Virus record (IMG/VR): IMGVR_UViG_3300013372_001213
Reading direction: 5' to 3' (one strand)
Length of the DNA stretch: 64,000 nt
Origin: an uncultured virus (IMG/VR IMGVR_UViG_3300013372_001213)
Lineage: Duplodnaviria; Heunggongvirae; Uroviricota; Caudoviricetes
How positions within the stretch are numbered: the stretch's first letter is position 1; every line of letters begins with the position of its first letter. A program made the translations under genes and the position numbers. Shown piece after piece: positions 57,136 to 63,046 of the stretch. The notes under the pieces were generated by a model. The model did not search any database, had not been told where the DNA came from, and saw only the letters and a program-made list of their open reading frames with translations.

Positions 57136-57780
57136 CTATTCTTTATATTTCCAAATATATCCTCCTGCTGATTTATTTTTACCTAAACAACATTTAGATA
57201 TGGAACCACAATCTATATTGAGTTGTCTTGATGCTTCTCTTGCAGACTCAAACTCTTGTATTAAATTGTTCTCTAAGTCATATTGACCTACTTTTTTTCT
57301 AAGCTTTATAGCACATTTTTTTCTTTCTTCTAAATCTTCATACCTTTTTTTATGACCTTCTGTATTAGTATATTTACCTCTTTTTACACCTGTCATTGCT
57401 TTAGATATTGCTTTTTTTTCTTCATTACTTCTTTTTCTGCCAAGCAAAGCATTTTTTATTTTACTCTTAGTAGAATCATTATGACCAACTCCTTCACCTC
57501 CTTCTGATAAATTACACAAGTTATTATTAGCATAATAAGAAATCCAATATTTTTCTCTTTCTGCCCAATTATCTGTGCATTCTTCTATGATTTCCATTAC
57601 CGGAAGCATGCTATTAGAAATTAGTTTAAGTATCCAAGAAGCTAGTTTTTTGCTACCTGTTTTTTCTAAACACTTTTTACTTTTATGTTGAGCAAATCTT
57701 CTTTTTATATTATTAGTCTTGCCAACATATTTTATTTTAAAAGTTTCAGGATGTCTAAGTATGTATATGTATGTTTTCAT
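57136..57780 (-). mobile_element. Free-standing GIY-YIG homing endonuclease with NUMOD3-like and NUMOD1/IENR1-like DNA-binding modules
   Basis: YIYIL...YVGKT...RRFAQH...EREKYWI...NLSEGGEG; repeats of KSKIKNALLG/KKAISKAMTG; VGQYDL...FESAREA...ISKCC.GK.KSAGGYIWKY. Confidence 0.85.
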
Positions 57781-58396: not shown

Positions 58397-58672
58397 TTAG
58401 TCTTGTTTGTTTGATTTAATAAATACTTTTAATGTTTTTCCATCATCTTGGTAAGATAATTCTAAATGACAATTATATAAAGAGTTTTTAACATATACTC
58501 TGCCATTTTCATCAATAACTTCAAACCTTGTTACTTTTGAAATATCAGCCATATCTTCTTGGCATTGTAAATAGCCTTTGGTAAAACCACAATATTCACT
58601 GGCAATTTCTTTAGAGCCAGAATCTTTACAAACTTCTAAATAAATTTTATCTATTTCTTCTTTAGTTTTCAT
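58397..58672 (-). CDS. Small hypothetical protein, MKTKEEI paralog A
   Basis: Shares its start, a QCQE motif and the NKQD end with 59787..60023. Confidence 0.65.
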   Translation of the reverse strand: MKTKEEIDKIYLEVCKDSGSKEIASEYCGFTKGYLQCQEDMADISKVTRFEVIDENGRVYVKNSLYNCHLELSYQDDGKTLKVFIKSNKQD

Positions 58673-58678
58673 GTTATT
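58650..58678. repeat. 29-nt exact direct repeat (second copy at 60001-60029)
   Basis: TCTATTTCTTCTTTAGTTTTCATGTTATT at both positions. Confidence 0.9.
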
Positions 58679-59786: not shown

Positions 59787-60023
59787 TTAGTCTTGTTTGT
59801 TTAGTGAGTTATTATTTATAGCATATAAGTTTACTTGAGCATAACCATCTATGTCATACCAAGTATTTTTTCTAATGTCTTCCCTTAATTGTTCAAGTTC
59901 TTTAGCCATTTCTTCTTGGCATTGGGTGTAGCCCTCAATATATCCACAATAAACATAGTGATCACCAGTATTGTCTTCTATATATTGCTCAGCTAACTGT
60001 TCTATTTCTTCTTTAGTTTTCAT
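59787..60023 (-). CDS. Small hypothetical protein, MKTKEEI paralog B
   Basis: See paralog A. Confidence 0.65.
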   Translation of the reverse strand: MKTKEEIEQLAEQYIEDNTGDHYVYCGYIEGYTQCQEEMAKELEQLREDIRKNTWYDIDGYAQVNLYAINNNSLNKQD

Positions 60024-60147
60024 GTTATTAGTTATAAATAAATGAATATAACCAACCTGTGTTGGCCAATTGTAACTGGATTAAATCCATATAAATCTTT
60101 TCTTCTCTTGTATACATAATTAAAGTTTTAAAGTTTATAAATTATTT

Positions 60148-60411
60148 TTATACTTTTAAGTAATAGTTATAAGTTTTACCAGTCTTCTGACTAGTCTTAA
60201 TTATAAATAACTTACCTGTTTTAGATTTGTATACAGGATGTTGTTTTCCTTTAGCATCTGTAAAAGTCTTGCCGGTAGAGATAGCCTCTGATTTCCTAGA
60301 ACCTTGTGGTTTCTCTACTAACACATAATTACCTGAAGCATCTTGTTTAACAGTCTGTGAATAACTGATAGTAGATAGACCTACTAGAATTACTAAAATT
60401 ACTTTTTTCAT
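60148..60411 (-). CDS. Small secreted basic protein (likely start MKKVIL, 87 aa)
   Basis: Signal peptide MKKVILVILVGLSTISYS-Q. Confidence 0.65.
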   Translation of the reverse strand: MKKVILVILVGLSTISYSQTVKQDASGNYVLVEKPQGSRKSEAISTGKTFTDAKGKQHPVYKSKTGKLFIIKTSQKTGKTYNYYLKV

Positions 60412-60439
60412 GTTTTTTGGGTTTAGATTGTTAATTATT

Positions 60440-60619
60440 TTAAGATTCTTGTACTTCTCCCCCATCATATTTATCCTGGGGGAGTTGGACATTGCTTTCA
60501 TAGTACTCTTGTTCTTCTAAATACCTTTCTATAAAATAAGAATCAGGTAAATGTTGATAGAGACTATTTCTAAGTATCAGCTCTTGTTTAAGCTGAAACA
60601 CTTCTTTCATTTTTCCCAT
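60440..60619 (-). CDS. Small hypothetical protein (59 aa, MGKMKEVF; not in the track)
   Basis: ORF preceded by an A-rich leader. Confidence 0.55.
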   Translation of the reverse strand: MGKMKEVFQLKQELILRNSLYQHLPDSYFIERYLEEQEYYESNVQLPQDKYDGGEVQES

Positions 60620-60651
60620 GTTATTTATAAAGTTGATTAAAAGTTAAAAGT

Positions 60652-60963
60652 CACCTAGTAAAAAGGTTGAATAGTCTAAAATAAAATTAATGATAAAGCC
60701 AAAGACCTCTCTCTGTGTTCAAAGGCAAAGATAAAAACTAAGTCTTGTTATGTATCCTCACAGAGCTGTGCTCTGGTTTGTATGAGGTGCTGCCAGTTTT
60801 CTCCATAGAGTAACCTGTCAAGCCATTGGTATCTTTTGTGAAAAGACCCTACAAAACTAGTGTTTAAATTTTACAGAGAAAGCGGTTTGTGTACCCTAAG
60901 GTACTTTTATATAATTTATAAATTTTATATTTTTAGATTTTTTGAGAACCTTCTTACCAGGTA
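60652..60963 (-). ncRNA. Putative ~310-nt structured non-coding RNA
   Basis: 17-bp closing helix (3 G.U), 10-bp CUUUCUCUGU/ACAGAGAGAG helix and several nested hairpins; no ORF. Confidence 0.65.
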
Positions 60964-60967
60964 TAAA

Positions 60968-61002
60968 GAGTAAGAGAATCAGCTTATGCCTATCTCTTAC
61001 TC
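60968..61002 (-). other. 10-bp hairpin between the coiled-coil gene and the ncRNA
   Basis: GAGTAAGAGA/TCTCTTACTC; could be a terminator or a processing stem. Confidence 0.6.
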
Positions 61003-61015
61003 ACCTTTGAATATG

Positions 61016-61936
61016 TTAGGATTCAGAATCCAAGCTCTTTAAGAAGAGATTTATGGTATCCTGAAAACGAGAATCTATAGAGATTCTTAGAGTACTAGCC
61101 TGTTGAATTCTTGTCTGTCTCTCAGACTCAAAATTCTCATATGCCACCTTCACAGCCTCTTGATGAGTGCTCATTAAGTTAGAGTAATCTAATCTCAACT
61201 TTTGGTTGATTTGATTAATCTCTGCTCCCTTAATAGCATTCTCCTTAGAGATGCGAGCATTTTCCTCAGTAACCAAGTTCTTAACCTTGGCTTTGAAGTA
61301 ATTTACTCTCTGCTCATAAGACCTATGCAAAGAAGCTAACTTCTCATGGTAGCCTAATAGCTGCTCTGAGGTATGATGAGCTTCTACCTTCACAGGGGTC
61401 TTTATACCAGAAGATAACTCAATGAAGTCTAAGACTTTCACATTAGGTAAATCTCTTCTAAGAACATCCAATGGACAATTCTTGTGAATAAACTGCCCTA
61501 TGTGAGAAGCAAAAGACTCTTGCTCAAGGTACTCAGAGTACTCTGCTTGGCTAAGCTGTTCCCAACCCCAATCTTCTCCTACTAACTCTTGATTCTCAAA
61601 AGTTGAATAAGTAGGTTGTTCTGGGGCTACTAAGGAAGTAACAAACCTTTCCTTTTTGATAAAGGTAATCAAGGCATCTTTAGCCTTAATGTTACTCATC
61701 AAGAAAGCTTGGGCTGCATGCAACTTACCTTTCTCTACCAATAGCTCTACCACATTAGTAGGAATGGCTTTTCCTACCTGCAACATATACTCATCTCCAT
61801 TAGACTTAAAAGTCTTAGATGCATTATTAATACCAGTAATGATATTATTAATCTCAGATGCTCTCTGATTACATAAGTTAGAGATACTAGCTGCTTGACT
61901 TAAAGATAATCCTGTGTTTTGTAAATTATTTTTCAT
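61016..61936 (-). CDS. Coiled-coil protein of unknown function (likely start MKNNLQ, 306 aa)
   Basis: GLSLSQAASISNLCNQRA N-terminus and a long helical C-terminal half. Confidence 0.8.
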   Translation of the reverse strand: MKNNLQNTGLSLSQAASISNLCNQRASEINNIITGINNASKTFKSNGDEYMLQVGKAIPTNVVELLVEKGKLHAAQAFLMSNIKAKDALITFIKKERFVTSLVAPEQPTYSTFENQELVGEDWGWEQLSQAEYSEYLEQESFASHIGQFIHKNCPLDVLRRDLPNVKVLDFIELSSGIKTPVKVEAHHTSEQLLGYHEKLASLHRSYEQRVNYFKAKVKNLVTEENARISKENAIKGAEINQINQKLRLDYSNLMSTHQEAVKVAYENFESERQTRIQQASTLRISIDSRFQDTINLFLKSLDSES

Positions 61937-62102
61937 AATCTTTCTAATAGGTTGCCTATACACCTTGAGGTTTTAGTTTATGTGTTTGATTTGATTTTTG
62001 ATTTGATTCCATTCTTTAGGTAGACTAGCTCTAAGCTAATCTACCACAGTGAATGTTACTGGTGGGTTCTTACGAATGAAGTATACCCACAAAACCTTAT
62101 GC

Positions 62103-62157
62103 ATTGCCTATATTTATTTCTAGGTATTTCGTCTCCTATAAGACTCATCAGGGCAAT
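62103..62157 (-). ncRNA. Hammerhead ribozyme (type I topology)
   Basis: AUUGCC-CUGAUGA-GUCU(UAUAGG)AGAC-GAAA-UA...UAUA-GGCAAU: complete catalytic core with stem I (6 bp), stem II (4-5 bp) and a short stem III. Confidence 0.8.
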
Positions 62158-62432
62158 TAGATTAGACCATAATCTTCAGGATTCTCCAACATATTCATGC
62201 CCATATAGTAGGCTACTTGTTGGTTGATATCATTAATTGCCTTATCTTGTAAAGCAACTAACTCTTCTCTGATTCTTGTGGTTAGTATGAGGTCACCTGT
62301 ATTCATAAATCCTTTTCTTAGGACAGTACCAACAGGTGGTATCTCAATTTGGTAAAGGTCAGCATCATGCTGTATACCTAAACATTTAAGAGCAGTGATA
62401 GCTCTAACTGTTGCATCTTTAAAATCTTCCAT
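62157..62432 (-). CDS. Hypothetical early protein (likely start MEDFKD, 91 aa)
   Basis: The upstream extension in the track overlaps a structured element. Confidence 0.6.
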   Translation of the reverse strand: MEDFKDATVRAITALKCLGIQHDADLYQIEIPPVGTVLRKGFMNTGDLILTTRIREELVALQDKAINDINQQVAYYMGMNMLENPEDYGLI

Positions 62433-62473: not shown

Positions 62474-62733
62474 TTATCCTAAGCACTTGGTTGTAACCTG
62501 TGTTTGTTATACAGGAAGTCATTGCTTTTATATAGCATTTACAACCTTGTGCATTAGGAATTTAAATCTATACTCTTTCTTTGTTCTTTGGTATGTATTG
62601 ATTAGTATTTCACCAGTTTTATCCTAAGCACTTGGCTATAATTGCCTATACAGATTAATTTCTGTAGGATAGGTTTCATATACCACGCTTGGTATACTAC
62701 TTTTTTACAATCATAGCCTTGTGCATTAGGAAT
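62474..62733 (-). repeat. Two tandem structured elements (62474-62561 and 62619-62733) with identical 17-nt arms
   Basis: TTATCCTAAGCACTTGG and CCTTGTGCATTAGGAAT each occur twice and pair with one another. Confidence 0.8.
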
Positions 62734-62734
62734 G

Positions 62735-63046
62735 TTATTCATACCCTTGATTATCAGGGATATTTTCTCCATGAAAGTCATCATATTCTTTTAACTTTTC
62801 AGGAGATATAGTAGCTCTATGCTCTTTAATCTGTTTTTCTAATGAACAGATAAGAGCTCTTTGTTCATCAACCCACCATCTATATTCAAGATTTTCTTGA
62901 TAACTATCAGATACATCTTCTATATCTTCCGAAGATAACTGAGGCGGTCCTGTCATTATTAACTCTGATATAGCTGTGCTTAATTCAGAGTTTAATCCAT
63001 CTAACCAAGTTAGTGGGTGTGATTCAGCTGTGATTTCTATTTCCAT
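62735..63046 (-). CDS. Hypothetical acidic early protein (103 aa)
   Basis: ORF. Confidence 0.6.
   Translation of the reverse strand: MEIEITAESHPLTWLDGLNSELSTAISELIMTGPPQLSSEDIEDVSDSYQENLEYRWWVDEQRALICSLEKQIKEHRATISPEKLKEYDDFHGENIPDNQGYE

Follow-up and report, generated by a model that had tools for sequence, protein, structure and literature searches.

A structured phage RNA with two rows of six-nucleotide units is encoded together with a helical partner protein

Analysis of a 64,000-nucleotide stretch of DNA (hereafter, the window) from an uncultured virus revealed a structured RNA of approximately 362 nt, encoded on the minus strand (61008-60647), that stays together with one protein gene across very distant phages, gut phages included. 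The element is almost certainly a real, conserved RNA, and the linkage between the RNA and protein components of this two-part locus is strict. Both components fall outside described families. Periodic RNAs beside a single phage protein recently proved to be new mechanisms, as in the available account of VIPR (10.64898/2026.04.26.720920), from which both period and logic differ here. As a two-part module, the pair can be rebuilt and is directly testable.

The window makes up the initial 64 kb of a virus record of 118,307 nt (G000), which has direct terminal repeats and is rated 100% complete, and the RNA is present in a single copy in this complete genome. By the size and order of its ORFs alone, with consecutive ORFs of 4520, 1725 and 1122 aa and a separate block harboring ORFs of 733, 922 and 544 aa, the phage looks crAss-like, which points to a putative Bacteroidota host. 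The RNA lies between the stop codon of a 306-aa ORF (61936-61016) and a 59-aa ORF ending the region at 60619. The initial annotation had described an unannotated, highly structured RNA of about 310 nt here, spanning 60652-60963. All the sequences it named occupy the minus-strand places it gave, and the RNA itself is real, but its limits were drawn too narrowly: pairing of both ends, where 61008-61006 covary with 60647-60649, places the start about 45 nt earlier (~61008), and the annotation missed two conserved elements, a hairpin near the 5' end and the 4-bp stem by which the ends pair. As it had proposed, folding exceeds chance expectation, with z-scores of -3.9 on the minus strand versus -2.2 on the plus strand for 60640-60975, and of -5.7 for 61008-60647 (60 shuffles), and no ORF of at least 50 aa overlaps 60652-60963. 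The absence of a known family also held: Rfam 15 returned no match over the element in the window, whether the gathering score or an E of up to 10 was applied, and none over the element in 13 relatives, where only tRNAs and a separate GOLLD were reported.

Conservation and covariation were both found downstream of homologs of the 306-aa gene. At E <= 0.001, relatives of the partner protein number 2303 in the 90% library; the 50% library contains 700. Protein-based scans yielded 168 loci with 132 distinct downstream stretches, and the RNA was detected at 157 of these 168 loci with a nucleotide profile whose seed was the window plus 68 distinct sequences from the same loci, which makes this count partly circular; the 11 misses all end at most 52 nt past the stop codon. 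Searching with an RNA-only pattern identified 57 viral loci, many of them on the same contigs as protein-found loci, and in 57/57 the protein is encoded within 1.5 kb. A more distant set, in which a gut phage collection contributes many of the 80 loci, encodes proteins with 25-37% identity to the distant query. The close RNA profile matches just 10 of these 80. Scored for the two tracts instead, 29 of 32 distant representatives exceed the 95th percentile of 158 control windows, and 14 also exceed the control maximum; two of the misses (L278 and L304) display GUCUAA-type tracts by eye. At the third (L275:3885-4800), the 5' part resembles that of its relatives and no hexamer tract is present within 900 nt of the partner gene, possibly reflecting an interrupted RNA.

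The RNA is located downstream of the gene, usually within ~10 nt of its stop codon; at some loci up to ~1 kb, often containing an ORF, separates the two and the RNA is still intact. The pair is distributed in phage genomes of about 100 to 640 kb, and a survey of bacterial genomes (GTDB, 185,579 species) returned 4 loci, each on a MAG contig of 2.7-30 kb. Among the 102 of 113 flanking ORFs that were scanned, no Pfam family reappears as a constant third neighbor. A partnership with Ro60/TROVE was rejected, since TROVE occurs in only one of these 102 ORFs: a TROVE/Ro60-like gene (526 aa) directly follows the RNA in a 434-kb jumbo phage that carries a YqeY gene upstream (L003:4333-5913), an arrangement that is not general.

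To define the fold, covariation was assessed on 77 sequences (L147 dropped) and 291 columns with a home-made G-test, other than R-scape, against a tree-based null (20 null sets). Seven pairs scored above every null value and one reached E 0.05; all are Watson-Crick pairs and they fall in helices P0, P1, P2 and P6. RNAalifold, applied to 51 sequences, predicted 33 pairs, 28 of them with two-sided change. In the overall architecture, a three-way junction (P0, P1 and P2) leads into a long arm with two asymmetric loops, the 3' sides of which are the hexamer tracts. All coordinates below refer to the minus strand. The outer stem P0 comprises 4 bp between 61005-61008, which a near-invariant GGU follows, and 60647-60650; 88% of 304 cells pair, with two-sided change in three of the four pairs and E=0.00 for pair 61006/60649. 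The covarying 5' hairpin P1 (60968-61002) pairs in 90-100% of cells and shows two-sided change in 11/11 tested pairs, four of them with E=0.00; its cap (60991-60979) combines an A-rich internal loop, which is conserved, with a GC/GC stem of 2 bp that carries an ANAA loop. The 17-bp closing helix recognized in the initial annotation, with its three G.U pairs, is P2 (60963-60947 with 60668-60652), and compensatory changes support it: pairing holds in 97% of 539 cells for the outer 7 bp, all of which show two-sided change, whereas the inner 8 bp pair in 66% of 575 cells and vary in register. The 3' strands of P2 and P0 (60668-60652 and 60650-60647) are documented by RNAalifold, the G-test and helix counts.

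Within the long arm, P3 is formed by CUUUCUCUGU (60882-60873), preceded by a conserved CG, and ACAGAGAGAG (60716-60707), the AGAGAG helix of the initial annotation. Compensatory changes bear it out, with 88% of 748 cells pairing and two-sided change in 10/10 pairs. Its 3' strand lies between the two tracts, which are separated by a linker of 11-14 nt across the 77 sequences. The P4 5' strand (60856-60865) has its probable partner in hexamers 1 and 2 of tract 1 (60742-60733), as suggested by an A-U/U-A swap (47 versus 12) and by pairing that beats a shuffled segment in 69/77 sequences, a count biased by picking the register with the best pairing; the match is imperfect in the window. P6 (60788-60823), a hairpin with a conserved CAGGUUA strand, is supported by helix counts, the G-test and RNAalifold (82% of 834 cells pair; pair 60819/60792, E=0.00). 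It replaces a helix proposed earlier between CUAGUUUU (60860-60853) and AAAACUGG (60800-60793), sequences that are in place but pair in just 58% of 316 cells. Other elements are more local. Hairpin P5 (60828-60848), seen in the predicted fold and the alignment, differs between clades. The CCUCA..UGAGG hairpin P7 (60756-60787) is in place, as annotated, and the alignment confines it to the window's own clade. Likewise, the GUACC/GGUAC hairpin (60891-60904) sits where it was reported, in a variable A-rich 5' linker, but its sequence and presence differ among relatives, and the UCUAAAA/UUUUAGA helix lacks conservation, with pairing in 53% of 273 aligned cells. A pseudoknot joining the beginning of tract 1 to the end of tract 2 found no support, one of its four pairs being broken in 23/77 sequences and uncompensated.

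Both tracts with 6-nt periodicity reported in the initial annotation are present and longer than it had stated. Tract 1 (60720-60744) consists of four hexamers plus a G (GACUUA GUUUUU AUCUUU GCCUUU G), and tract 2 (60671-60706) of six hexamers over 36 nt with a near-invariant CUAU end. The unit is a fixed-register G-N-Y-U-U-U hexamer, present in 4 + 6 copies in the window. Pooled over 77 sequences, its successive positions are G in 89%; A42/U36/C14/G6; C59/U35; U78; U96; and U72. Position 3 is a pyrimidine in 94% of cases and position 2 alone is nearly free. Given G1 at 89%, the pyrimidine at position 3 and U5 at 96%, the constraint on the tracts is on bases rather than codons. The 36-nt pattern of tract 2 fits 77/78 sequences; the register is constant although the strands opposite differ in length, over 79-164 and 94-290 nt, and the number of hexamers changes by whole units. 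Distant clades retain about five units in tract 2 and down to two clear units in tract 1, with a shifted consensus: GUCUUU, GUUCUU or GUCUAA depending on the clade. One gut clade presents GUCUAA hexamers without UUG, and the number of tract 1 units there varies among close strains. No tract helix appears among the top 60 G-test pairs in the 77 sequences; tract 2 has no conserved pairing partner, and neither do the last two hexamers of tract 1. Since covarying partners are missing, we take the tracts to be single-stranded in the conserved fold, even though folding of single sequences pairs them ~58% of the time, versus 93-95% for the strands of P2 and P3.

Two other readings of the tracts were rejected. 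Coding on either strand is ruled out by codon use, frame and stops. The forward frame would encode alternating D/V/A and F/L/I residues, and stops are rare in it (1/77 sequences for tract 2, 3/77 for tract 1), but the codons used (GTC for 119/225 Val, GCC for 73/88 Ala) reverse the usage of the genome (2% and 5%). Moreover, the length of the linker between tracts does not keep frame, and in the L272/L278 clade TAA interrupts the forward frame and TAG the alternative reverse frame, with no clear sign of recoding. Mimicry of Bacteroidota promoters by the UUUG units was assessed with the Bacteroidota promoter consensus: motif TANNTTTG occurs 94 times in the window versus 104 expected, and, contrary to such mimicry, UUUG units are missing from one clade.

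The partner gene (61016-61936, minus strand) encodes 306 aa, or 315 aa if translation starts at an upstream GTG at 61963. Its AlphaFold2 model (pLDDT 82.7, pTM 0.75) is mostly helical and is laid out as two helix/beta-hairpin/long-helix units followed by a C-terminal helix-strand-helix; residues 118-232 modeled alone reach a pLDDT of 94.3. This secondary structure suggested an internal duplication, for which comparison of the two halves gave no support (hhalign probability 0.3%). Residues conserved across 114 sequences include N20, K84, K86, G147, H151, R160, H204, R205, N212 and K215; K84, K86, H151, R160, H204, R205, N212 and K215 would fit an RNA-binding surface. The protein as a whole is not net basic, with 35 K+R and 38 D+E.

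Sequence and fold searches place the protein in no described family. It has no Pfam match under E 0.05 and no PHROG assignment, and PADLOC yielded only scattered weak matches in at most 2 of 34 or 39 family members; one of them, to RTasWYL-YodC (E 0.0008), was dismissed as it involves 1/34 members. Fold searches with the whole model or residues 118-232 found no PDB match under E 0.001. The best VIA-align matches (Z 7.2, rmsd 7.8, 135 aligned residues; Z 8.8, rmsd 3.7, 86 aligned) are helical bundles or hairpins of a generic kind, including prefoldin (Z 7.7). BFVD contained a single match, an uncharacterized homolog; sequence searches of the PDB gave only weak apolipoprotein matches, and the ESM Atlas gave no usable one. 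Among GenBank phages the window's protein is unmatched, and two metagenome-derived records match a distant homolog.

We identified 24 RNA runs from 18 studies that match part of 60400-62200, none of which covers half of it; besides the four described below, the runs contain small shares of this region and carry no weight as evidence. Contigs from these RNA libraries correspond to 60650-60993 (X3), 60674-60943 (X2) and 60647-60974 (X7), at depths of 9-32; in three of the four runs examined, out of 24, contigs are deeper on the RNA than on other closely matching pieces of the locus, and in run X1 a single contig spans 60714-61521, joining gene and RNA. These contigs are sequences of close relatives from which the strand, ends and level of the RNA are not readable, and they provide a weak hint of transcription. 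With regard to the surroundings, a tRNA gene is present in the retrieved flank of 31/59 close and 19/29 distant representatives, versus 4-21% of random windows in 10 genomes, in related samples and in a kind of region that is a general insertion site for accessory genes. A flanking tRNA gene is absent in 6/10 genomes examined singly, one of which (G006) has no detected tRNA at all, and the only tRNA gene of the window lies 4.6 kb from the RNA.

Taken together, these features lead us to propose, with moderate confidence, that the RNA is a scaffold that would form an RNA-protein particle with copies of the partner protein on its hexamers, likely acting on the host tRNA or translation machinery during infection. 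The RNA would be co-transcribed with the partner gene, and the transcript would be trimmed or processed at the P0 stem to yield a P0-closed form. Several copies of the protein could then dock, one per free single-stranded G-N-Y-U-U-U hexamer, each reading the alternate bases G1, Y3 and U5, and the conserved P0/P1 junction may constitute the working face of the particle. Binding of the RNA by its partner is the part that comparative evidence makes quite likely, and the identification of the hexamers as the binding sites is also probable, if less so. Action on tRNA or translation, the weakest step, is a tentative and rather doubtful suggestion based on the enrichment of tRNA genes nearby. Somewhat less probable still, as a joint proposition, is a new class of phage ribonucleoproteins, ranging from crAss-like phages up to jumbo phages of 640 kb in lakes and guts. 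In this class, a six-base code on a scaffold RNA would be read by a helical protein of a new family, and tRNA or ribosomes would be captured or shielded by the particle against translation-attacking host defenses.

The main rival explanation, which we consider unlikely, is that the protein acts as a toxin or nuclease-like effector, which the hexamers keep inactive until decay of the RNA frees it, in the manner of type III toxin-antitoxin systems. Like ToxIN, TenpIN and AvcID, the locus is a strict two-part RNA and protein module; each repeated unit could hold one protein, the invariant His, Arg and Asn residues could be catalytic, and the contig bridging gene and RNA hints at co-transcription. 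The antitoxin described for AvcID is, moreover, a single structured RNA (PMC10511110). In type III systems, however, the RNA antitoxin is encoded upstream of the toxin gene, and the ToxIN RNA is made of pseudoknotted repeats of tens of nt. Here the RNA is downstream, its units are of 6 nt, the Pfam, PADLOC and fold searches link the protein to no toxin, and the pair is phage-restricted and nearly absent from bacterial genomes.

Less probable than an RNA-held toxin is that the hexamer rows serve as a decoy for a host RNA-binding protein or defense nuclease, with the phage protein only stabilizing or presenting the RNA. A repeated single-stranded motif also occurs in CsrB-type sponges, and the restriction to phage genomes suits a decoy. 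Yet a decoy has no need to remain beside one protein gene over 20-30% protein identity, and a consensus that shifts by clade is better explained by a co-inherited reader than by a fixed host one.

Among known systems, VIPR is the closest in logic to the new pair, insofar as it is described (10.64898/2026.04.26.720920). Its RNAs of ~100 nt, often in arrays, carry 9-16 five-nt GGY/NN (or XYZ/NN) repeats with hypervariable NN and work with a RAMP/RRM protein on a gapped DNA target, resulting in transcriptional silencing. Both are minimal phage loci combining one protein gene with an RNA in which fixed and variable bases alternate periodically beside a structured region or cap, and by analogy with vrRNAs the fixed bases could be held by a protein filament while the variable ones specify a gapped nucleic-acid target. 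We regard such a guide function as very improbable. The resemblance fails on the unit, which is of 6 nt and organized in two short tracts within a single-copy, 360-nt nested fold; on variability; and probably on the protein fold. Differences clustered in one RNA contig had hinted at guide-like hypervariability, which found no support over 413 pairs: only hexamer position 2 is nearly free, and in each of the four identity bins the variable tract positions changed more slowly than the partner gene's four-fold synonymous sites (0.051 vs 0.069, 0.092 vs 0.196, 0.166 vs 0.287 and 0.325 vs 0.428, for 13, 28, 169 and 203 non-independent pairs). The protein model, mostly helical with two beta-hairpins, lacks an RRM core, and no RAMP is among the matches listed by the fold searches, an absence that by itself does not exclude such a fold.

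A cis-acting 3' element or antisense RNA controlling the upstream gene would fit the usual proximity of the RNA to the stop codon and the resemblance of the tract reverse complement to the codons of the KAKD and KAKVKN motifs of the protein. This explanation is nonetheless highly improbable, since the duplexes of the two tracts with their own CDS are no stronger than with other homologs or shuffled CDS (-17.2 vs -17.0/-17.1 and -21.6 vs -21.3/-21.7 kcal/mol; 75 loci), 33 and 47 of 256 genome chunks bind the tracts better than the own CDS, and the RNA stays intact at up to ~1 kb from the gene. Equally improbable is a role of the tracts as a template for repeat synthesis or as a tmRNA-like reading frame: they form a fixed-length single strand bounded by helices beside a protein gene, reminiscent of DRT10 and telomerase-like templates as described in PMC12632851, tract 2 has similar GUCU units at both ends and forward-frame stops are rare, but, unlike in DRT10 or retron loci, reverse transcriptase is absent from the locus and RVT_1 has no match in the complete genome or in 4/5 relatives (the remaining one has RT matches at least 8 kb from the partner gene), no Asp is among the conserved residues of the protein in 114 sequences, ARAGORN and Rfam found no tmRNA with its tRNA-like domain, T-arm, CCA end and tag frame, and codon use, linker and stops speak against any kept frame.

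Two further comparisons concern the RNA itself. TRAP is a small beta-sheet ring that acts in cis on the (G/U)AG repeats of the Bacillus trp leader. In the proposed particle, evenly spaced, short single-stranded motifs would similarly be read by repeated protein sites, but the new RNA differs in its stand-alone fold and 6-nt spacing, and its helical protein is unrelated. In habitat, GOLLD and ROOL are the closest, being large structured phage RNAs often found near tRNA islands (PMC12286853); nearness to tRNA genes is a shared, not a diagnostic, trait. As in the GOLLD linker, which according to the same source can hold tRNAs, the 5' linker of the RNA contains a whole tRNA-Thr(UGU) at one locus (L234:3977-4053). 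Unlike GOLLD and ROOL, the RNA is smaller, does not match their Rfam models and is tied to one fixed protein gene, while ROOL has no known partner in that account (PMC12286853). An RNA-only nanocage is a further trait of GOLLD and ROOL.

A literature search covering sources other than bioRxiv supplements found no published description of the RNA-protein pair. Five short motifs of the RNA are absent from the six supplementary files of PMC10690425 that were searched, out of nine, and pieces of it may be among the 10,006 unnamed candidates of that study. In the accessible part of another report (10.64898/2026.10.21.760802), which does not mention hexamers, a genome-wide screen for periodic RNAs dropped clusters with a period multiple of 3 that also peaked at lag 3, and this filter could have removed the new RNA.

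Several additional observations were made at these loci. In one relative, a tRNA-like piece lies within the RNA, with a T-arm-like hairpin placed before it (L230:3980-4041). In another, a GOLLD RNA (L012:5028-5442; 306 bits) is found 1.3 kb downstream of the new RNA, amid tRNA genes, and a Band 7/SPFH gene precedes the partner gene. Contigs in three runs match only the 48-nt 5' hairpin of the window (60959-61006), with two differences and unlike sequence on both sides, and pairs of close relatives with swapped 5' domains appear among the comparisons of the rate test; the sharing of this hairpin by otherwise unlike RNAs could reflect domain exchange. Approximately 170 nt upstream of the partner gene, the minus strand harbors a type III hammerhead-like ribozyme (62104-62157), with a CUGAUGA and GAAA core and three stems, scoring 16.8 bits, under Rfam's score. 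It is kept with compensatory changes in L001, L008, L091 and L133; the core pattern has 13 matches in 68 loci, four of them clear by eye and confined to the window's own clade. This element may define where the joint transcript of gene and RNA has its 5' end. Elsewhere in the window, a 33-nt repeat occurs in two copies (62536-62568 and 62708-62740), in a region where an RNA-library contig skips 62496-62717. A GIY-YIG/NUMOD homing endonuclease gene (214 aa) is encoded on the minus strand at 57136-57780, and an exact 29-nt direct repeat (58650-58678 and 60001-60029) marks the starts of two small MKTKEEI genes.
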